Positions 51,408 through 64,000 of a stretch of DNA of 64,000 nt are shown here, piece by piece. Origin of the DNA: Escherichia coli (lineage in GTDB: Bacteria; Pseudomonadota; Gammaproteobacteria; Enterobacterales; Enterobacteriaceae); NCBI RefSeq assembly GCF_030013595.1, contig NZ_CP122769.1; one strand, written 5' to 3'. The notes beneath the pieces are model-generated. The model saw nothing but the letters and a program-made list of their open reading frames with translations. It was not told the DNA's origin and ran no database searches. A program made the translations under genes and the position numbers. Position 1 is the stretch's first letter. Every line of letters starts with the position of its first letter.

Positions 51408-52223
51408 ATGAGAGAGCCAAGACCACGCCATACCTTGCAGGTCATTCGTGTACCTTCTCTGGAGGTTCAGGACCTGGGGCTGACCAGCTTTGATAGCTGG
51501 CTTGACGAGCACGGGTATGACAAAACGAATGCCAGAAATAACCGTACCATCTGGGCGAGAGAAGGCGGATGGCATCTGAAACGTTGCAGAAATCTTGAAA
51601 CTGGCACGGACGATTTCTGGTTTATCGCTTTCGATGGTAAAGGCGGGAAGATTTACCCGCTGAAAACCCAAAGAGACTACCGGGCTGCATATCGTAAGCT
51701 GGAAGCAGAAGGTTATGCGCCTGCGGTCATCGAGCAAATGACCACAGGCGCAGCATATAACCTGGCCTATCCACGTTCCACCCTAAAACAAGCTGAGACG
51801 GCCACCAGCGAGCCAATTCGGAAACCTGACGTAGATATCCAGGGTGAGCACTGCGAGCGCGTAGTGACGCAACGTAGTGGCGTGGCACAGGGTAAATTCA
51901 AAGCTCTGCTCATCGAGAATTTCGCAGGCCGTTGTGCGGTAACCGGTTGGGTTAATGGAGGTGTCCTGGATGCGGCACACATTGAACATGGAACCCGGTA
52001 CAATCCGTCTAATGGCATCCTGATGACTCCAACAATGCATGCGCTGTTTGATGCCGATCTTATGGGCATAGATCCGGCCACCCTGACCGTTCATTTTAAG
52101 CCAGGCATTGAGGTGGGCGAGCTGTTTGAAGGCCGTAAAATCACACCGCTGGTGTACGATCTGGACTTAGAGCGGCTGGCCGTACGCTGGGCAGAATACC
52201 AGGGCCTTGCTCAGGACCAATGA
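51408..52223 (+). CDS. HNH-family endonuclease
   Basis: C-terminal HNH signature CAVTGW...DAAHIEHGTRYNPSNGILMTPTMHALFD. Confidence 0.65.
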   Translation: MREPRPRHTLQVIRVPSLEVQDLGLTSFDSWLDEHGYDKTNARNNRTIWAREGGWHLKRCRNLETGTDDFWFIAFDGKGGKIYPLKTQRDYRAAYRKLEAEGYAPAVIEQMTTGAAYNLAYPRSTLKQAETATSEPIRKPDVDIQGEHCERVVTQRSGVAQGKFKALLIENFAGRCAVTGWVNGGVLDAAHIEHGTRYNPSNGILMTPTMHALFDADLMGIDPATLTVHFKPGIEVGELFEGRKITPLVYDLDLERLAVRWAEYQGLAQDQ

Positions 52224-52654: not shown

Positions 52655-52930
52655 GTGGCTTCTGTTTCTATCAGCTGTCCCTCCTGTTCAGCTACTGACG
52701 GGGTGGTGCGTAACGGCAAAAGCACCGCCGGACATCAGCGCTATCTCTGCTCTCACTGCCGTAAAACATGGCAACTGCAGTTCACTTACACCGCTTCTCA
52801 ACCCGGTACGCACCAGAAAATCATTGATATGGCCATGAATGGCGTTGGATGCCGGGCAACCGCCCGCATTATGGGCGTTGGCCTCAACACGATTTTCCGC
52901 CATTTAAAAAACTCAGGCCGCAGTCGGTAA
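52655..52930 (+). CDS. insA: IS1 InsA
   Basis: 91-aa product with zinc-finger [10 protein letters not shown]...CSHCRK and HTH, matching IS1 InsA. Confidence 0.9.
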
Positions 52931-53352
52931 CCTCGCGCATACAGCCGGGCAGTGACGTCATCGTCTGCGCGGAAATGGACGAACAGTGGGGATACGTCGG
53001 GGCTAAATCGCGCCAGCGCTGGCTGTTTTACGCGTATGACAGGCTCCGGAAGACGGTTGTTGCGCACGTATTCGGTGAACGCACTATGGCGACGCTGGGG
53101 CGTCTTATGAGCCTGCTGTCACCCTTTGACGTGGTGATATGGATGACGGATGGCTGGCCGCTGTATGAATCCCGCCTGAAGGGAAAGCTGCACGTAATCA
53201 GCAAGCGATATACGCAGCGAATTGAGCGGCATAACCTGAATCTGAGGCAGCACCTGGCACGGCTGGGACGGAAGTCGCTGTCGTTCTCAAAATCGGTGGA
53301 GCTGCATGACAAAGTCATCGGGCATTATCTGAACATAAAACACTATCAATAA
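52849..53352 (+). CDS. insB: IS1 InsB (expressed as InsAB' by -1 frameshift)
   Basis: 167-aa frame overlapping insA 3' end; sequence matches IS1 InsB. Confidence 0.85.
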
Positions 53353-54614: not shown

Positions 54615-55207
54615 TGAAGCCTCGTCTCAGCGATAACGCTTGAAATAGCCCGCTTTGGTCATCATGAAATTAGCCATCTGACTGGCGATTTGATTGTATC
54701 TTACTCATAGTGCCCTACCTATAGGTTAAAAAGGGGCATTTTCGCTTTATAGCGTGTTCAGCAGCATCAATCCTCCCAAGAAAGGCTGGCTTATTAAGCC
54801 GGTCCATCATTTTCTGTATATCTCTCATCAATTTTTATATCCGCCCTGGAGTGCACCGTTCAAGCACACCGATTAGGCAGATAGTCACTAGTTAACTCTT
54901 TACTAGTGACTAAATTCCATTGATATACGTGACAACGTCACGTCATGAAAGCTTTTAAATGCCTATTTTTCATACAATGGGATTTAATTAGGAGTAAATC
55001 CCATAGGCTTACATAAGGATGACAATTAAAAGCGTTAAATATCAACCAGATAGAATGATTACCCCCAATTAATGGGCTCATCACATTATTTCACTGGCTG
55101 GGGTTATTGCTGGCATATCTGAAAGTGCTAATATGTTAGTCATTAGTAATTAGTAAAGCCTTTACTAAACGCGTTTCTACGTAAATTCTATAGGTTTTAT
55201 AGGGTCC

Positions 55208-55290
55208 TGTCCGAGGACAATAAAGTTGTACACAAAGCACTAAAGTTGTAACCATTCTCAAAAAACGACGCTAATGTTGTATACTTACTG
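55208..55290 (+). repeat. Tn7-like end with three TnsB-binding-type repeats (AAAGTTGTA core)
   Basis: GACAATAAAGTTGTACAC, CACTAAAGTTGTAACC, CGCTAATGTTGTATAC in direct orientation within 80 bp of the TGT terminus. Confidence 0.6.
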
Positions 55291-55365
55291 AATGTGTGGT
55301 TATAGGGTTGGAGACTATAAAATGCACATATAGGTACGTATCAATGTCGTTTTTAGGGTACGATC

Positions 55366-56208
55366 ATGGCTAGGGGTAGGCGTCTCAAATCCTATTTGGA
55401 TTATGAAAATGCGCTAGGTGACGGCATAGGAGTGGGCTATGGCCAAAGTTATCAGCCCTGGCTTAGAGCTCAGGACGTTAAATCCCGTGGAAACCGTTCG
55501 ATAGTCTTTGGCCTTAAGACGTTTCGAAACCATCATCTCCTTTCTTCTGTCGAAAGTAACTTTTTCTATCTGGCTGAGTTTAATGACTCGGTGATTGATA
55601 TCCGGGAACAATTCCCACTCTTTCCTCTCCGGCTTACCCAACAAATAGCAAATCATCTACATTTTCAACATCCTATGGTGAGGGGAGTAAGAGGAGTACC
55701 TGTCGAAGTTCTGAATGTTATGACAACCGATTTTTTACTGACCTTGAGAACTCCTGAAGGCGGACTTCGATACAAAGCTATAGCAGTAAAACATAACGAG
55801 AGCATACCTGAACGCGAAGCCCAAAAACTTGAAATAGAGAGGATGTTTTGGCAGTTGATTGATGTTGAGTTTCAAATTTATGTTGGCTCGGAACTCAATA
55901 ACGTCGTCGGTAAAAACATTTGCTGGGCTACTTCTGTATTAAGAGATGGTTCTGAATTTTATGATAAATATCCTCTTGATAAAATCCTATGGAAGCTTAA
56001 ACCAGATGTTTATCCCATAGTAGGACTACGTGCAATGATTTCATCAATCTTTGGGGTAGATGCACAAGAAGCGATGATGTTATTGCAGGCAATGATTGGA
56101 TTAAAAATGATAAATGTTGATTTATCATATCCAATACTCGAAACCGGTCTGATAAAGATAATTTCCAATGACCACTATATAGGACTGAACGCAAATGGAT
56201 ATTATTAG
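55366..56208 (+). CDS. tnsA: TnsA-like endonuclease
   Basis: Colinear with Tn7 TnsA (YQPWLRAQDV..., HLLSS, IDIREQFPLFPL, LEIERMFWQ). Confidence 0.85.
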   Translation: MARGRRLKSYLDYENALGDGIGVGYGQSYQPWLRAQDVKSRGNRSIVFGLKTFRNHHLLSSVESNFFYLAEFNDSVIDIREQFPLFPLRLTQQIANHLHFQHPMVRGVRGVPVEVLNVMTTDFLLTLRTPEGGLRYKAIAVKHNESIPEREAQKLEIERMFWQLIDVEFQIYVGSELNNVVGKNICWATSVLRDGSEFYDKYPLDKILWKLKPDVYPIVGLRAMISSIFGVDAQEAMMLLQAMIGLKMINVDLSYPILETGLIKIISNDHYIGLNANGYY

Positions 56209-58318
56209 GAATTCAGTCTGGCTCTCTCAAGGCACTGATTTGCTTGCAGAGGGACTTTACCGTGTTTTGGATTTTGACAGAAAGGTCGATTTGTTAATTT
56301 TGTTTAAAATAAAATCAGAAAGAACGGGTAAGCCAATCCCTTTCTCATTTTCAATGTTTAAATATTATATTGAATCAAATAGCATAACTTGTAAAGATTA
56401 TATATATCCTTCATATATGTTAGTAGATGAGAAAGAATTAACAGATAAAGACAGAGGAAGGCGAGATGAAAATTACAATATCATTAAAGATCTTGTAGAT
56501 GACAGAATGTTTCTGTTCGACTATGCATTACATAAAAAGTCGCACCTTTTAATGGATTACTCAAGAAATAAAAAAATATCACAATATACTATCAGAACGC
56601 TTCTGGCGTTGTATTGGCGACATGGGCAGGATATTTATGCATTGCTACCCGCATTCTCGAACTGTGGCGCCGCTGGGAAAAGTAGAATCAAACATGAAAT
56701 TAAACTTGGGAATTCCAAAAAAAACAGAGCATTACCTAATGAACGATCACGTGTTTTCATTCTTAATGAAAGAGATATAAATAATATTAGAAAATCTCTC
56801 ATTACGTATCATTATAAAGTTAACGGAGATACGATAAAGAAAACATTAGAGAGACATATTGATTTGTATTTTAGGGATGAAATTAAAACAGCAAACCTAG
56901 AAAATAGAGCTCCATATGTTCCTTCTTTAAAACAATTTTCATACTGGAATAAAAAACTCTTCACTAAAGATTTCTCGATAAATAAGAAGAACACGAAAAA
57001 AGAAATAGACCTCAAAATGCGGGCGCTTTTAGGTAGTGTGGCTAATACAACTGTTTTGCCGGGTGATGTTTTCGAAATAGACTCAACTGTCGCTGATGTA
57101 CATCTTATTTCGAGTTTAAACAGACGAAAAGTCATTGGGCGTCCTACTATTTATACAGTGGTGGATCGTGCAACAAGAATGATTGTTGGCCTTCATGTTT
57201 CTTTATACCATGCTTCATGGCGAGCCGCCCGACAAGCGTTAGCAAATTGCTTTATGCCAAAAAAAGAATATTGTAGATTATTTGGAATCTCTATTACTGA
57301 TGATGATTGGCCTTGTTCTCACATTCCATTAACATTGATGTGTGACAACGGGGAGATGATTGGTCTTAAACCTCAGGAAGAGATGACCCCCCTGACAAAA
57401 CTTGAGTTTGCGCCAGTCGGTAGAGGCGACAGAAAAAGCATTGTTGAACGCTGTTTCGGCATTCTGAATGATGAGGTTATTCATAGGCTTATTGGAACAA
57501 CACGAAGGGGAAAGATTGTTAAAGGAGAGCCAACACCGCAATCCAGGGCTTGTTTAACGATTCAGGAGGTCACGTCTTTACTGATTCGGGAGATACTTGC
57601 ACATAATCAGAGAACGTATGAGGAACTGGCTTATATCAATCCCTTACTGATTGAAAATGATCTCGTAATATCACCAAAAAATAGTTGGATGATAAGCTTA
57701 AAGCACGGGAGATTCAGCGCAAGAGCCGTTGGGGCCGACGAAGTGATCGCACGATTGTTAATCCCTGTGAACGCTAACATTACCGCCGGTGGGATTCAGT
57801 ACAATAATCTTTTTTATGAATGTGATCCTGAAATTGCATCAGGTGTCAGAGTATTTGGAAGAACCACTTGTGAAGCAAGAATAGATGACAATTGCGTAGA
57901 TTATATATATGTAAGATTTGACAAAAATAGCATTTTCAAAAAACATTACCTACTTAAGAAAAGAGATGTATTTAAAGGGAAAGCTCATCTTGATACAGAT
58001 GTAATGGCTGATTGGGTAGATACTCAAAAAGAAATTAATTTATTTACTCTGGATTCGCTCAGCAATATCAATAATAAAGATGAATTTAACAGGAAAGGTA
58101 ACGAAAGATTAAATGAAATATACGAATCTCGCCGGGTACATGGTAAAGATATTAAAAAGAACAGAAAAAATGAACTTGATTCATTAGGGCGAACTCATGT
58201 TGCTAATGGAAGATCTGAACCCCTACTTCCTTCATCCAGTAATGTTCTGCTTTTGCCTGGCCGGGAGGAGAAACAAAGATGGTTAAAAGGTAAGAAGAAG
58301 ACTGAGGACGCAGAATAA
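56195..58318 (+). CDS. tnsB: TnsB-like DDE transposase
   Basis: 707-aa product in TnsB position, overlapping tnsA stop; Mu/Tn7-type transposase organisation. Confidence 0.8.
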   Translation: MDIIRNSVWLSQGTDLLAEGLYRVLDFDRKVDLLILFKIKSERTGKPIPFSFSMFKYYIESNSITCKDYIYPSYMLVDEKELTDKDRGRRDENYNIIKDLVDDRMFLFDYALHKKSHLLMDYSRNKKISQYTIRTLLALYWRHGQDIYALLPAFSNCGAAGKSRIKHEIKLGNSKKNRALPNERSRVFILNERDINNIRKSLITYHYKVNGDTIKKTLERHIDLYFRDEIKTANLENRAPYVPSLKQFSYWNKKLFTKDFSINKKNTKKEIDLKMRALLGSVANTTVLPGDVFEIDSTVADVHLISSLNRRKVIGRPTIYTVVDRATRMIVGLHVSLYHASWRAARQALANCFMPKKEYCRLFGISITDDDWPCSHIPLTLMCDNGEMIGLKPQEEMTPLTKLEFAPVGRGDRKSIVERCFGILNDEVIHRLIGTTRRGKIVKGEPTPQSRACLTIQEVTSLLIREILAHNQRTYEELAYINPLLIENDLVISPKNSWMISLKHGRFSARAVGADEVIARLLIPVNANITAGGIQYNNLFYECDPEIASGVRVFGRTTCEARIDDNCVDYIYVRFDKNSIFKKHYLLKKRDVFKGKAHLDTDVMADWVDTQKEINLFTLDSLSNINNKDEFNRKGNERLNEIYESRRVHGKDIKKNRKNELDSLGRTHVANGRSEPLLPSSSNVLLLPGREEKQRWLKGKKKTEDAE

Positions 58319-59766
58319 TGAATCTTATACGGCGCGTTTCAGCGATATATAAAGAACAGGAGTTACCTGAGTATCGTGGCAATCCCTTAATTGAAGCACT
58401 TCCTGAAGCGCTTACGGAAGATGAAGTACTTCTGGAAATGAGTTATTTCCCCGAAATTGACGAAAAAATCCGCTGGACTGCCCCGGCGAATGTTAGAGAG
58501 CAGTATGTCGAACGTATAAAGAAATTCCGTTGCCCTCAAACCAATCTTATCCAGGCTTATAAGATGATCTTACGGGCACTTAGGGAAAGCTATGCAGCTC
58601 GTAATCCTTTAAAAAGCGGAACAATTCAATATCTTCATTACTATGGAAATGAGCGTCCTGATATTGAGCCAGAAAGTGGATATTTTAAATCCCAGGCTGA
58701 AACTATTACGATAGTTGGAATGAGTGGTTCTGGAAAAACTACCATGATTGAGCAAGTCATGGAACATTTCCCTCAGATTATAGAACACAGCAGCTATAAA
58801 GGAGTTTTTCCCGGCTTCAGTAAGCAAATTGTATGGGTAAAGATTAATTGTCCATACAATTCAAGTGTGAGAGACCTTTGTGAAGAGATTTTACAAAAAT
58901 TAGATGATGCAATTGGTATTGAACGAACTACACCTGAGATTAGAAATGGTGCTCTGGCTCGCCAGATTGCACAAAGAATTAAATCATCATTTTTGGGTAT
59001 CCTTGTTATTGATGAAATGCAGAGGCTTAAATTTTCAAGAACCGGGGGTGAGAGTAAGTTGATTGATTTTTTACATGAAATTGTAGATTCCATGGGGGTA
59101 TCTATGGTTTTTTGTGGAAATCATCCTTTTGACGAGACGCTGACAAAGAAAATGAGAATTGCCAGGCGGGCAGAGTCTGGTGGTTACATGAAAATTAAGA
59201 ATGTTAGATACGATTCACAAGACTGGCAATCGTTTATTCATTATTTATGGCCATTACAATGGACAAATGTTGAAACTCCATTAAATGATGAGTTAAACGA
59301 AAAATTATTCATTTTATCTAAAGGCAATATTGGATTGGCTCAGATGATTTATCGGGGGGCACAATTAAAGGTTATCGGTAGCGGCAATGAAATCATCACT
59401 GGCGCAGTCTTGTCGGCCTCTGTACCGGTACTCGTGAGTCATACGGAGGAATATAAGGATACTCCACTCCCGGGGGCCGCGACTGAAGATGAGGAAGCTA
59501 AATGGCTCTCTGCATCTAATGAGGGTGATGCTTCGGCTAAAATCATGGCAGAGAAGTCCCTAAAGTCTTTGATCCCTGGGGATATAGACAGGCCACAGCA
59601 CAAGGAATTCGTAGGAAAAATAGACGAGGTTTTGCGCAATTTCGACGAGAAAATACTGTCTCTTGACCACGATCTTGTTATCAACAGAACAGCTGAAAAG
59701 AAAAATACCTACGATGCTCTTCAGCGTTGCGGGCTTATAAATATAGATCCACTTAATAAATTGTAA
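58318..59766 (+). CDS. tnsC: TnsC-like AAA+ ATPase
   Basis: Walker A GMSGSGKTT, Walker B LVIDEMQRL; start overlaps tnsB stop. Confidence 0.85.
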   Translation: MNLIRRVSAIYKEQELPEYRGNPLIEALPEALTEDEVLLEMSYFPEIDEKIRWTAPANVREQYVERIKKFRCPQTNLIQAYKMILRALRESYAARNPLKSGTIQYLHYYGNERPDIEPESGYFKSQAETITIVGMSGSGKTTMIEQVMEHFPQIIEHSSYKGVFPGFSKQIVWVKINCPYNSSVRDLCEEILQKLDDAIGIERTTPEIRNGALARQIAQRIKSSFLGILVIDEMQRLKFSRTGGESKLIDFLHEIVDSMGVSMVFCGNHPFDETLTKKMRIARRAESGGYMKIKNVRYDSQDWQSFIHYLWPLQWTNVETPLNDELNEKLFILSKGNIGLAQMIYRGAQLKVIGSGNEIITGAVLSASVPVLVSHTEEYKDTPLPGAATEDEEAKWLSASNEGDASAKIMAEKSLKSLIPGDIDRPQHKEFVGKIDEVLRNFDEKILSLDHDLVINRTAEKKNTYDALQRCGLINIDPLNKL

Positions 59767-59797
59767 TGAGGTAACAGTTCGTAACGGTCAAAGAGAG

Positions 59798-61363
59798 GTG
59801 TGGGAAATGAGAATGTTGCCTGTTTTGCCTGATGAATCCTTGTTCAGCCGGTTTTGTCGGACAACTACCGTGTACGGTATGTCCCCATCTTCTCTGTTAA
59901 CGATCATTTTCAACAAACCTGATATGAACGTCCATCCAATTCTCAATTCAGGATTAAAGGCTATTTCTCTTCATACATCCGAAAGTGCAGATCAGCTCTG
60001 GCATGAACAGACTTTACTCCCTCTTTTTGCCTGGGCACTACCAATCAGTCGTAATGAAATTATGGATTTCAACACGACCCCTGCCAGGCTTAATCGATTG
60101 TGCCGCCTTAGTAATTTTTCACTAGGGCAGCGCACACTATTGAAGTTTTGCCCGGTTTGCGCTCGTGAAGATACTTTTCATTATGGTGTTACTTATTGGC
60201 ATCTGGCGCATCAGCTTCATGGGGTTACAACCTGCCATCGGCATCCGGTAGCGCTTGAAAGCATCCATGTCCCTTCTTCACCGCACATACGTATTGGACT
60301 GATGCCTCCTGTTTCGTATACAGAACAACTTAGCAATGAGATAGACTTCGATTTTGCTAAGTTTTGTTATGAGTCCCTAAATATAATCAGAAGAAAAGAT
60401 ATTACACACCCCAATTACATGGATGTACTTAAAAAGTTGAATTTATTATCATTGGATGGAAATTTAAAGAAAAATGTATTCTACGCACATGTTTATGCTA
60501 AGTGCCAGTTATTTGGGGAGGGTTCATCGGGACTTATACCAACATCCCTAACTGATTATCATTACTGGGAGCCTATACTCAAAGACAAATGTTGTCAGCA
60601 TCCCACAAAGCATCTTTTGCTTTGTTATTGTTTGTTAAATACTTGCTGGCCAACGTATGCAGGAAGTCGTACTAATAAAAAGAAAGAAATCTTTAAAAGT
60701 CATAAGAAATACAGTTTTCATATAGTTGAAAATAATACTAGTGTTAGCAACCTTGGGAAGGAATTTAGTCGCAGCAGATGTTACATTAAAACACTTATTT
60801 ATAAAAAATACCTGAGGGCGTTTAAGCGAAACACAAAAATTAATATATTCACTGAATTGCTTATCAAGTCTATGGCTGTAAGGGGGTTTAGTCTGGCATC
60901 CATAGCTGAGAAAAACTCATTATCGGAAGGAGCTGTATCCTCTGTAATTTCATCTTGTTACGGTTTATGCTCATGGCGTAAAAAATGTAAAAAAGATTCT
61001 TTAAGACGGCGTCATAAGCAGAAAATATTAAGATTTATACATAATCAATCCGTTTCTATAACACGAAAGTTAGTCAAAGAAAGTTGTTATGCAAGTTTCT
61101 ATTGGCTAAATAAACATGAATGTGACTGGCTTAATTCCTGTCTTCCTAAAACAATACGATGCTATAAAAATAAAAGAGTAGACTGGAGCGAGAGAGATAT
61201 TATCTCATCATCATTAATAAATGATGTTTTATCTCAGGGGCAGTACTCGATGTCACTTACAAGTCTAGATGCTTTACTGGGAGGGCATGGCTGGCTTTTG
61301 AAATACAGAGATAAACTACCAATGACAATGATACTTCTCAGAAAAATGGAACTAATTAAATAA
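59798..61363 (+). CDS. tnsD: TnsD/TniQ-family target-selection protein
   Basis: N-terminal zinc-finger pattern CPVCAREDTFHYGVTYWHLAHQLHGVTTCHRHP characteristic of TniQ/TnsD. Confidence 0.7.
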   Translation: MWEMRMLPVLPDESLFSRFCRTTTVYGMSPSSLLTIIFNKPDMNVHPILNSGLKAISLHTSESADQLWHEQTLLPLFAWALPISRNEIMDFNTTPARLNRLCRLSNFSLGQRTLLKFCPVCAREDTFHYGVTYWHLAHQLHGVTTCHRHPVALESIHVPSSPHIRIGLMPPVSYTEQLSNEIDFDFAKFCYESLNIIRRKDITHPNYMDVLKKLNLLSLDGNLKKNVFYAHVYAKCQLFGEGSSGLIPTSLTDYHYWEPILKDKCCQHPTKHLLLCYCLLNTCWPTYAGSRTNKKKEIFKSHKKYSFHIVENNTSVSNLGKEFSRSRCYIKTLIYKKYLRAFKRNTKINIFTELLIKSMAVRGFSLASIAEKNSLSEGAVSSVISSCYGLCSWRKKCKKDSLRRRHKQKILRFIHNQSVSITRKLVKESCYASFYWLNKHECDWLNSCLPKTIRCYKNKRVDWSERDIISSSLINDVLSQGQYSMSLTSLDALLGGHGWLLKYRDKLPMTMILLRKMELIK

Positions 61364-61374
61364 GAGGGAGTTAT

Positions 61375-62301
61375 ATGGTTTACGAAAATGAATTGTGGCA
61401 CAGTTTTCTTCTGCGTTCACAGATAATGTATAACTTATCCAATTGCAGGAACATAATATCAAAGCATGGCGCACTAAGGTACGATGCCTTTCCTCGTTTC
61501 GAACTGATTGATATGTACAAATTGCATAGCTTGCAGGATATATATGACATTCTTGCCACTAGAAATGGTTATATACTAACTTCCAATATAGTGTCGTTAT
61601 CTTCTGGTGTTTACGGGTATTTTAACGCTGTTGAAGATGCCTGTCGGAAAAATTTTCACATAACTAATTCATATCCATTGGTAAACATCTCAAACATTCG
61701 TTACTGTCACAAATGTATTGTTGAAGATATACACTCTAAAGGCATTGGTTATCTGCGTCATAGATGGTTGTTTGAATCTAAATGTGCAGTTCATAGTACC
61801 AGTTTATATGAGGTTTGTTTTGATAACTATTTGAATGCAGTGAAAGGACTTAGTGACTTAATTATAAGTGGAATAAATCCTCATGGTTATTGTTCCCTTG
61901 TGGTTGACGTTTCAAACCCTTTCAAAAATCCAGTGTATATATTACCATGTGCACGTAATAAAATTTTAAAATGGATTTCGGACAATAAAAATATGCTGAT
62001 TTACTTTCTCTTTGATCTCTTCAAATGTAAGTCGCATTCAAGTTTATCTAAGGTTATCGAAGTCAAGATAATGCATGATAGATATATTTCTGCGGTGTTC
62101 AAGATGTTAAGTGAAGTTAATTTTTGTAATTTCAACTCATTTATTTCTGATATTTTTGAGGACGTAAGTTATGCCTCTATCGGACTTGATGATTATTCTG
62201 TTAATGTGCATTTTCTCAGGCTAAGGGCTGCAGATTGTAAATTTTGCCAGTTGAATGGTAAATATTTTTGCTCACTTTACAATGTAAAATTTCTTCGCTA
62301 A
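61375..62301 (+). CDS. second TniQ-like protein (308 aa) in the position normally held by TnsE
   Basis: Repeats the TniQ-type pattern CHKCIVEDIHSKGIGYLRHRWLFESKCAVHS; too short and dissimilar to be Tn7 TnsE. Confidence 0.45.
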   Translation: MVYENELWHSFLLRSQIMYNLSNCRNIISKHGALRYDAFPRFELIDMYKLHSLQDIYDILATRNGYILTSNIVSLSSGVYGYFNAVEDACRKNFHITNSYPLVNISNIRYCHKCIVEDIHSKGIGYLRHRWLFESKCAVHSTSLYEVCFDNYLNAVKGLSDLIISGINPHGYCSLVVDVSNPFKNPVYILPCARNKILKWISDNKNMLIYFLFDLFKCKSHSSLSKVIEVKIMHDRYISAVFKMLSEVNFCNFNSFISDIFEDVSYASIGLDDYSVNVHFLRLRAADCKFCQLNGKYFCSLYNVKFLR

Positions 62302-62653
62302 TTTCACTTCATTTATAAAATACTAAGAAAGCTAGTTAGATAAGGTTTTATATTTTGACTGGGGCAGGAATAAATTATCACTCATAGAGTTTCCCTGGGG
62401 GTTACCACCTGTGTATGATGCCGGTTAGCAACAACGTCTAAAAGACCTGCGATCACGTGGGTCCCTCTCCAGCAAAGGGGCAAGGGGTGCTATATAACGG
62501 TGTACTGCTTACCCAATACGGCCTTGTATTTGAAAGATGCCGCATCTTGGCAGGATTCGTATTACAGCCTATAGTCTGTTAATGAGCATTACAGCCTATA
62601 TGCTGTAAATCCCTGCGTTATGCTTGTTAACTCGTCGATACGGAAGGTCACTT

Positions 62654-62953
62654 ATGAACACTCAATACGCTTTGAAGACTTTGAATCAGTTACGTCCTGT
62701 TTTAATCGGCTTTCGCAAAGCCAATGGACTGACGCAAAAAGATGTTTCTGAACGTTTGGGTATAACACAGCAAACTTATGCCCGACTAGAGGCCAACCCT
62801 GCAAGTGCGGGTTTTGAGCGTTTGTTTAGGGTGTTCAGCGTCCTTGGAGTGGAGATCGTACTTTCATCCAGGGAACCATTGTCAGATGCAAAGCCCGAAT
62901 ACGGAGCTATGCACAATTATTCTTCACTTCCAGCCAGGCGGGAGAAATGGTGA
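62654..62953 (+). CDS. hipB: orphan HipB-like HTH protein inside the Tn7-like element
   Basis: About 80-85% identical by eye to the HipB at 48990-49286 (LNQLRPVLIGFRKANGLTQKDVSERLGITQQTYARLEANPAS); upstream palindromes ACAGCCTATAGTCTGT / ACAGCCTATATGCTGT; no hipA follows. Confidence 0.7.
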   Translation: MNTQYALKTLNQLRPVLIGFRKANGLTQKDVSERLGITQQTYARLEANPASAGFERLFRVFSVLGVEIVLSSREPLSDAKPEYGAMHNYSSLPARREKW

Positions 62954-63516
62954 CGCCTGGCGCTTCCCGGTCTAATTTTTCTTCAACAAGATTAACCCCT
63001 TAGCGGCCTGAAGTATCAGGTTGCGATAGAGCCTTTCATTTCTTCTGTTATGTTAAATACACCATTTTGAGCTATTTCGCTCGGCCTTAAATTATCTCTT
63101 CATTCTTCAGTGAAAATTTTATGTCGATCACATTATCGATGAATTTAGGAAATAATCCGTAAATGAAAATCTATCTTCTTTTAAATTCATCAGTGTCAGT
63201 AGCAAATATTACGCATAAAAGAATGGTTATTATTATCATTTAAATTATAAAGCTCATGAGTCAATTCCAAAAAATATAATAAGCATTGAAATCATTACCC
63301 GTGATTCTGGAGTTTTAACTTTGCCATGTAACCAACCACAAGTTAGTTTCCGGTGTTTTGAGGGGCAGTAAAGTTCTGAAAGCGCGACCAGATCATAATC
63401 CCGAAATGTCGTTAAGATATTCTGAATAACGGTTATCCCTGCTTGTTGGCAGGCATTTGAAAATATATTTTGTATTCAGGTTGCAGCAAAACGCTTTCTT
63501 ACACACAGGACTTCAT

Positions 63517-64000
63517 ATGCGGCTCAGAAAATTAAAACTGAAAAACTTCAGAGGCTACAGAAACTCTACTGAAATCATTATTGATGAAAGCATGACGGGT
63601 ATTGTCGGTCGTAATGACTTTGGGAAATCAACGCTTCTGGAAGCGCTGGCTATTTTTTTTGAAACAGAAGGAATGAAGGCTGACAAGAATGACATGAACT
63701 GTTTCAGCCTAAGAGAAGGGGACGGCCGTTTTGAAATAGCCTGTGAATTTGATGACCTGCCCGATTTTATCATGATCGACGACAGGGTGCAGACCACGCT
63801 CGCCTCAGAACATCTGCTGAATGAGGACGGCAATTTTGAAATCGTCAAAACGTTTAAAGCAACGACCTCAGGAAAACCGGAGCAGACCTGCATCCGCTGC
63901 ATCCACCCGGATGAGGAGCCCCTGAGAAATTTACTGGGCATGAAAATTTCTGAGCTCAAGGCGGTGGGAAAAGAAGTTGAAAAAAATGTGGCGGATAAAC
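63517..64000 (+). CDS. OLD/ABC-type (AAA_15/21-like) ATPase, N-terminal 161 codons; 3' end outside window
   Basis: ATG with RBS CAGGA; N-terminus MRLRKLKLKNFRGYRN...GIVGRNDFGKSTLLEAL (Walker A) typical of OLD-family/defence-associated ATPases; no stop before window end. Confidence 0.65.
   Translation, partial: MRLRKLKLKNFRGYRNSTEIIIDESMTGIVGRNDFGKSTLLEALAIFFETEGMKADKNDMNCFSLREGDGRFEIACEFDDLPDFIMIDDRVQTTLASEHLLNEDGNFEIVKTFKATTSGKPEQTCIRCIHPDEEPLRNLLGMKISELKAVGKEVEKNVADK

Follow-up and report, generated by a model that had tools for sequence, protein, structure and literature searches.

A Tn6230-type Tn7-like transposon with two TniQ-family genes, inserted at yhiN and at a recurrent intergenic site of IncHI plasmids

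The Tn6230-type module and its 308-aa TniQ-family protein

We examined a 64,000-nucleotide stretch of Escherichia coli DNA (contig NZ_CP122769.1, the whole of which is referred to as the window). Judged from its sequence, the region at 55208–62301 is the tnsA-proximal end and the transposition module of a Tn6230-type Tn7-like transposon, lying inside an IncHI2 plasmid. The open reading frame (ORF) list of the window holds five co-directional tns-region genes behind the element end, and the module comprises the following features.

55208–55281, plus strand: tnsA-proximal end (“right end” in Tn7 nomenclature), with terminal TGTCCGAG and three direct TnsB-type repeats
55366–56208, plus strand: tnsA, endonuclease subunit of the heteromeric transposase (280 aa; Tn7 TnsA 1t0f in the PDB, E = 2.5e-31)
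56195–58318, plus strand: tnsB, DDE transposase subunit, end-binding (707 aa; Tn7 TnsB 7pik in the PDB, E = 1.5e-49)
58318–59766, plus strand: tnsC, AAA+ adaptor between selector and transposase (482 aa; Tn7 TnsC 7mbw in the PDB, E = 4.1e-37)
59798–61363, plus strand: tnsD, large TniQ-family selector with a TnsD C-terminal domain (Pfam TniQ 1.7e-19 and TnsD 8.8e-15)
61375–62301, plus strand: small second TniQ-family gene, candidate second target selector (308 aa; WP_000262423.1, “hypothetical protein”)

The initial annotation had described a clear element end with TnsB-type repeats followed by tnsA, tnsB, and tnsC, and all of these are present at the positions listed, with PDB matches to the Tn7 proteins. 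It had further placed a 521-aa TnsD/TniQ protein after tnsC and then, with no TnsE, a 308-aa protein repeating the TniQ pattern, an arrangement that our analysis confirms. The 521 residues of TnsD are counted from a GTG start (the RefSeq start at 59807 gives 518 aa), and the protein matches PDB TnsD 8glu with E = 0.0028. An NCBIfam scan of the five proteins was uninformative for TnsA, TnsB, TnsD, and the 308-aa protein, the last of which had no match. No TnsE-like gene occurs among the 30 annotated genes of the full 32.4-kb element, a TnsE profile not having been run on every ORF, and a Pfam scan of the 308-aa protein gave TniQ only and no TnsE. The AAA-ATPase encoded downstream, whose gene is the one further large ORF close to the tns genes, was considered as a disguised TnsE and rejected, being OLD/PARIS-AriA-like. 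No resolvase is annotated in the element, and the annotation of the full-length element and of its relatives shows no cas genes, CRISPR arrays not having been specifically searched for.

The element end starts at 55208 with TGT (sequence TGTCCGAGGACAATAAAGTTGTA), and direct repeats of the form MWAAWGTTGTA lie within 75 bp at 55220–55230, 55240–55250, and 55271–55281, the chance expectation being 0.52 matches in the whole window. The window end at 64000 cuts the element, and the remainder was read from full-length records, which located both ends, the 5-bp duplication, and the attachment site, as the initial annotation had proposed to do. The inverted partner, …ACAACTTTAATGTCTCTACACA, lies at the distal end, 32,410 bp from the proximal end, in plasmid pMCR_WCHEC050613 (record L002), where TGTCC flanks the element on both sides. 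Across copies, perfect 5-bp duplications were read as TGTCC, ATTGC, GGTGG, and CCTAC, and the pentamer occurs a single time in an empty IncHI2 site, L007 (…ATAGGGTCCTACC…). In the window, the flank of the element is as follows.

55203–55207, no strand assigned: left copy of the 5-bp target duplication (GGTCC in the window; TGTCC in some sister plasmids)

Position 55203 is polymorphic, the pentamer being GGTCC in the window, L007, and L017 and TGTCC at 2828 and 35243 of L002, which may reflect a single-nucleotide polymorphism of the target or an exchange of flanks among plasmid lineages. The element is Tn7-like in its TGT…ACA ends with several repeats of the TnsB-binding type and a 5-bp target duplication, in encoding a TnsA endonuclease, a TnsB DDE transposase, and a TnsC AAA+ regulator together, and in combining a TniQ/TnsD-family selector with oriented insertion beside a conserved gene.

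The 9-kb query 55000–64000 is 99.9–100% identical to many IncHI2 plasmids, and the element was found in 938 of 5,426 complete E. coli genomes. In full-length records, it spans about 32.4 kb with 30 annotated genes, the tns genes being followed by a helix-turn-helix (HTH) gene, an AAA ATPase gene, copM, and the silver and copper resistance operons silESRCFBAGP and pcoABCDRSE. Tn6230 is a published element of the Tn7 family with R478 as its reference; this plasmid carries the prototype of the Tn6230 subfamily, credited to Peters et al. 2014 (PMC13049778; PMC11406308, Table 1). The left and right inverted repeats (IRL and IRR) of Tn6230 have been published as TGTCCGAAGACAATAAAGTTGT and TGTACACAGACATTAAAGTTGT, respectively (PMC13049778). 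The copy in the R478-type backbone has ends exactly equal to both, and the window end, TGTCCGAGGACAATAAAGTTGT, shares 21 of 22 bases with the IRL, the one difference being A/G. The published repeats, the yhiN attachment site, and the sil/pco (sil-cop) cargo are thus all found. The window element and Tn6230 have in common the tnsABCD module, the sil/pco cargo, the yhiN site, and IncHI2 carriage, and apart from the A/G variant in otherwise alike terminal repeats there is no substantial difference. These sequence features make the element Tn6230, or another member of the Tn6230 subfamily, and for practical purposes a copy of Tn6230.

The 308-aa gene lies 12 bp from tnsD. Its product matches Pfam TniQ (PF06527) weakly, with 19.5 bits and an i-E of 0.0016 over the whole model (7–142 of 142), and the PADLOC TniQ model at 1.2e-5. 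It has a zinc finger of the form C111-x2-C114…C137-x2-H140. A BLASTP comparison with the neighboring TnsD was not significant (E = 0.16), though the zinc finger aligned, and a single-sequence PDB search gave nothing meaningful. A word-indexed homolog search found only six close relatives; an exhaustive profile search then gave 91, of which 32 full-length sequences were aligned. In these 32, C111, C114, C137, and H140 are invariant, as are C192, C288, and C299, with C291 nearly so. Pfam TniQ matches occur in 19 of the 32 homologs at E ≤ 0.1 (best 8e-8), and no other family recurs. The best PDB match of the family profile is Tn7 TnsD (E = 0.0029), and in a comparison of hidden Markov models with hhalign the family joins the TnsD family of the same lineage with 91.6% probability (E = 8.2e-7) over 156 columns that include the finger. 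The protein was modeled with AF2 at a mean pLDDT of 80.6, and every named structure match in AFDB50 is TniQ/TnsD. Taken with the hhalign result, this model bears out the TniQ fold that the zinc-finger pattern had first suggested. The 308-aa protein thus has a helical domain at its N terminus and, after it, a CxxC…CxxH zinc finger, an arrangement homologous to the one in TnsD; by sequence and predicted structure, it is a divergent TniQ core without TnsD’s C-terminal extension.

The gene could instead be a decaying, functionless duplicate of tnsD, in view of its weak Pfam score, its “hypothetical” annotation, and a divergence faster than that of any other tns-linked gene. However, a cluster of 2,266 member sequences contains the 308-aa protein in intact, full-length form, and dN/dS is about 0.15 against a 60%-identical ortholog (an approximate value, as dS is saturated). 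The zinc ligands are invariant in the 32 diverse homologs, the AF2 model is confident, and the position of the gene is kept in elements without common cargo. We regard decay as very improbable.

The same gene may already bear a name. According to a remark in PMC11014353, Peters et al. 2014 gave the name “TnsF” to a gene of Tn6230, and the 308-aa ORF is probably this “TnsF.” Some authors loosely write the module as “tnsABCDE” (PMC8417528).

The layout is conserved. In all five readable contexts, the small TniQ gene adjoins tnsABC and TnsD/TniQ genes, with unrelated cargo, and homologs at 21–27% identity have tnsD or a shorter tniQ as their immediate neighbor within a tnsABC module. The two genes run in one direction in L018 and L026 and toward each other in L020/L021 and L029/L030. 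The small TniQ retains 23–27% identity in relatives where TnsD keeps 33–43%; in L020, the values are 23% for the small TniQ, 33% for TnsD, and 42–50% for TnsA, TnsB, and TnsC, the small TniQ being the fastest-diverging part. Since no gene consistently adjoins the small TniQ, no encoded partner is apparent, and the downstream HTH and AAA-ATPase genes were rejected as partner selectors, as neither is kept beside the small TniQ in relatives. In L029/L030, a short TniQ of 336–346 aa that lacks a TnsD domain is the primary selector, and the gene of the second small TniQ is oriented toward it; the tnsA end there abuts a glycosyl-hydrolase/GntR locus, not yhiN, and the cargo includes an OLD-like nuclease with a UvrD-type helicase, a Gabija-like pair. 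A scan of species-representative genomes for the end sequence returned only three loci.

Attachment sites in yhiN and in IncHI plasmids

Of 41 sampled chromosomal rows, 40 have a match that starts with the element end and lies directly against yhiN, and the 3′ end of yhiN always faces the tnsA end. In ECONIH4, where yhiN points toward the tnsA end, the element has entered 16 bp ahead of the native stop codon of yhiN and ATTGC is duplicated perfectly. The position in the Enterobacter asburiae copy equals the E. coli one, and a distant relative adjoins a yhiN homolog. Transposition from a plasmid to yhiN/yhiM has been reported from the laboratory (PMC8417528). In the ECONIH4 chromosome (L004, 3002–3017), the last five YhiN codons are replaced (…DLIAAKSS becoming …DLIAVRGQ) and the stop comes from the transposon end, so that insertion at this “safe site” slightly alters the host protein. 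A chromosomal copy in STEC388 (L003, 1966000–2015000) was rejected as an independent chromosomal site, as it is an IS26-bounded IncHI2 piece with its plasmid flank intact. The pco end of this copy is replaced by IS26/Tn3-family resistance modules, and to judge from its boundaries it arrived via IS26-mediated integration and not by Tn7-type transposition.

On plasmids, the window copy occupies an IncHI2 intergenic segment that immediately precedes a DUF4942 gene and of which an empty version exists. The insertions at this site are as follows.

IncHI2, window type: reference position; duplication [G/T]GTCC; TGTCCGAGGAC end
IncHI2, R478 type: +3 bp; duplication CCTAC (perfect); TGTCCGAAGAC end
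IncHI1A: equivalent position; duplication GGTGG (perfect); element identical
IncHI1B: insertion at the very nucleotide position used in IncHI1A; a relative with proteins 60–88% identical and a different end sequence

All of them have one orientation and fall within about 4 bp. On both sides, the IncHI1A flanks are diverged homologs of the IncHI2 flanks (about 61–65% identity), whereas the element itself is identical. One intergenic IncHI site has thus been used at least three times independently. Three different duplications, two end variants, and a diverged relative at one spot rule out a single inherited insertion, and recombination did not carry the element across, because the flanks differ right up to the junction. 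Compared with Tn6230 in R478, the window copy has the G end variant (TGTCCGAGGAC) and sits 3 bp off the R478-type insertion point, and it is therefore a separate insertion event into one and the same plasmid site.

These data also bear on whether a second selector is needed at all. The IncHI insertions could have come about without one, at a pseudo-att site of TnsD, at a structural or replication hotspot, or by recombination of one ancestral insertion, the 308-aa protein then having a role in regulation or target immunity. Tn7 TnsD does use weaker pseudo-att sites, IncHI plasmids recombine and have homologous flanks, and the pairing of protein with site is one that we infer. Yet the duplications are perfect as well as different, insertion directed by a selector typically shows such a constant orientation and a nearly constant position, the flanks diverge up to the junction, and the IncHI site has no detectable similarity to yhiN (yhiN vs IncHI flanks: identity 0.20–0.33, no better than chance; GC 60–70% vs 33–37%). 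An origin of the IncHI insertions without the second TniQ therefore seems improbable to us, though less so than decay of the gene.

Within the flanks, one segment stands out.

55136–55168, plus strand: conserved AT-rich IncHI backbone block, TTAGTCATTAGTAATTAGTAAAGCCTTTACTAA, with the dyad TTAGTAAAG-C-CTTTACTAA

The IncHI1 and IncHI2 flanks have diverged elsewhere, and conservation between them is highest in this block. The block lies about 40–72 bp from the insertion point, and the tnsA end faces it in every case, a geometry that matches the distance and side, relative to the tnsA-proximal end, of TnsD at attTn7. The block is a candidate recognition sequence of the plasmid attachment site. 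The IncHI target was also considered as a promoter or RNA gene and rejected, as it has no sigma-70 consensus match and no Rfam family, the only hit in Rfam being the Hammerhead ribozyme model, far below threshold. A junction on a Citrobacter MOBH plasmid (L010) was rejected as a third attachment site, being a single record in which the insertion splits a gene for an ATP-binding protein that is intact in other respects; the flank does not resemble yhiN, and we treat the junction as an off-site event. In the open-access literature, we found no description of the IncHI site as a specific attachment site. The 2014 abstract of Peters and colleagues reportedly places Tn6230 relatives in yhiN “as well as in mobile plasmids.”

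Other features of the plasmid backbone were observed near the element. Small dyad or hairpin motifs at 54931–54950 (GTGACAACGTCAC) and 54976–55007 (AATGGGATTTAATTAGGAGTAAATCCCATAGG), in a 600-bp intergenic region, are kept between the IncHI1 and IncHI2 backbones despite diverged surroundings and might serve, close to the plasmid attachment site, in regulation or protein binding. Just upstream of the element, at 52655–53352 of the window, the IncHI2 backbone carries an IS1 copy (InsA and InsB′ ORFs). An HNH-endonuclease gene (51408–52223) is about 7 kb closer to the transposon end than in pHNSHP24-1 (L001), and this distance suggests an IS1-associated backbone deletion in the window plasmid.

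How two sites could be chosen

The reading that we favor, with a probability of about 60%, is that two TniQ-family selectors serve two unrelated targets, TnsD directing insertion to yhiN and the small TniQ directing it to the IncHI site. TnsB would bind the repeated sites in both ends, and TnsA and TnsB would cut the element out in cut-and-paste transposition of the Tn7 type. TnsC would couple the transposase to a target-bound selector, and insertion, with a 5-bp duplication, would take place at a fixed distance and in a fixed orientation relative to the recognized sequence. TnsD would read yhiN, whose last codons would provide a safe site in the chromosome, and the small TniQ would direct insertion to the IncHI site so that the element rides a conjugative plasmid. 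The small TniQ might bind DNA itself or act via a plasmid- or host-bound partner; binding of TnsC and activation of transposition at a chosen target are its candidate function. That TnsD serves yhiN is suggested by its C-terminal domain, which is typical of gene-reading selectors, and by analogy to Tn7 TnsD and glmS.

The initial annotation had taken the two selectors to imply two distinct modes of target recognition. The finding of two specific sites that are unrelated in sequence supports two modes, whereas the assignment of one site to each selector is a further step, which we infer. Several points weigh against it. The dyad in the IncHI block is imperfectly conserved in IncHI1B, and the gene-disrupting insertion in the Citrobacter plasmid (L010), a unique case, shows that targeting is not absolute. 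As to the protein itself, a Foldseek search of the 308-aa model against the PDB was not significant (E = 0.34), and its own Pfam TniQ score is weak. Lastly, the small TniQ is kept in relatives whose tnsA-end flank is not yhiN and also in yhiN-targeting relatives in hosts without IncHI plasmids, e.g., Vibrio (PMC12671221). For this reason, its general role cannot be one specific to IncHI, and it might rather assist the primary selector as a co-factor.

Taken further, this main rival to the favored reading would make the small TniQ an obligatory partner of TnsD, the two acting as a hetero-complex in targeting generally, with both sites read by the complex or by TnsD and co-factors. The pair of TnsD/TniQ and small TniQ is indeed kept across the lineage, including yhiN-targeting relatives at 21–27% identity, and is also present in Vibrio elements (PMC12671221). 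Moreover, the 308-aa protein is a TniQ core without a long C-terminal DNA-binding extension, a lack that Faure 2023 read as a need for a partner, and in Tn6022 there is a precedent for TniQ and TnsF acting together. Two unrelated DNA sites are, however, more simply explained by two recognition modules, and in characterized dual systems, namely the I-B, I-D, and Tn7017 CRISPR-associated transposons (CASTs), the TniQ-family proteins each act in a separate pathway (PMC10293859, PMC11406308). The extra conserved cysteines (C192, C288, C299, and C291) could form a binding module of the small TniQ’s own. On balance, we consider an obligatory partnership unlikely, although less so than insertion without the second TniQ.

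A narrower form of the two-selector reading has the small TniQ as a protein-guided selector dedicated to plasmid homing, its target being the conserved IncHI block of about 30 bp, which would be read directly through the extra Cys cluster or via a protein bound there. We hold this only tentatively, at somewhat below even odds. If it is true, a Tn7-like element without TnsE has gained a sequence-specific attachment site on a conjugative plasmid family, which would explain the tight tie of sil/pco, and with it mcr-9, to IncHI plasmids.

Cargo, significance, and comparison with known systems

The first genes beyond the transposition module lie at the end of the window.

62654–62953, plus strand: first cargo gene, small XRE/HipB-like HTH protein (NCBIfam HipB/Y4mF-type HTH)
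63517–64000, plus strand: start of a 608-aa OLD-family/PARIS AriA-like ATPase-nuclease, cut by the window end

Both lie between the tns genes and the sil operon of Tn6230. The HTH gene is absent at the equivalent position in L018, L020, and L029. The full 608-aa ATPase (L001, 28518–30344) matches PADLOC AriA at 4.9e-57 and GajA/Old at about 1e-23, and it is probably anti-phage defense cargo beside the metal-resistance genes.

Tn6230 confers silver and copper resistance, is a landing pad for mcr-9 in relatives, and occurs in about one-sixth of complete E. coli genomes. The anatomy given by the initial annotation, a Tn7-like element with two TniQ-family selectors, thus stands, and its suggestion of two modes has gained support; the novelty it implied is not supported, as the element is already published as Tn6230 and the dual-selector layout is a described class. 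Because both have been published, our finding improves an annotation, from “hypothetical” to second TniQ, and does not amount to a discovery. The useful lead lies in the second attachment site, where a defined IncHI segment of about 100 bp was entered repeatedly and precisely; this could explain the tight association of resistance islands with IncHI plasmids. For Tn6230, the “molecular details” are listed as “unknown” (PMC11406308, Table 1), and the IncHI site gives a concrete, testable lead on the way in which a Tn7-like element without TnsE reaches a family of conjugative plasmids.

The published class consists of dual TniQ-TnsD loci, of which Faure 2023 (PMC10293859) counted 1,048 tandem against 2,905 single-gene loci. 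They make up about a quarter of Tn7-branch loci, are polyphyletic, and were proposed to have two targeting options. The present locus is alike in that a selector of more than 400 aa with a C-terminal extension (521 aa) adjoins a much smaller TniQ (308 aa). It differs in having no annotated cas genes and no conserved partner gene beside the small TniQ, and in that the candidate second target is a fixed plasmid sequence and not RNA-guided. By annotation, the small TniQ is not cas-partnered as in a CAST.

With Tn7, the element shares the TnsA/TnsB transposase, the TnsC adaptor, a target duplication of 5 bp, insertion at a conserved gene’s 3′ end, toward which the tnsA-proximal end points, and a lifestyle on both chromosome and plasmid. 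Here, however, the target is yhiN, not glmS, and the insertion lies inside the last codons, with a new stop from the element. Whereas TnsE of Tn7 captures conjugating DNA in a structure-specific manner, the present element has no TnsE, and plasmid carriage apparently comes about via a sequence-specific plasmid site.

Tn6022, which targets comM, carries TniQ and TnsF/Orf3 and is alike in having a short TniQ beside another dedicated targeting protein. Its TnsF is tyrosine-recombinase-like and unrelated to the 308-aa protein; the “TnsF” of Tn6230 is a different gene (PMC11014353). Finally, the “res-site hunters” Tn5053/Tn402 (TniABQ+R) lack TnsA, use a resolvase, and target res sites, whereas the present element has TnsA, no annotated resolvase, and an intergenic IncHI target and so falls outside that group. 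They nevertheless are a precedent for TniQ-mediated choice of a plasmid site, as their small TniQ brings the element to one particular plasmid locus, possibly with the help of a protein bound there.

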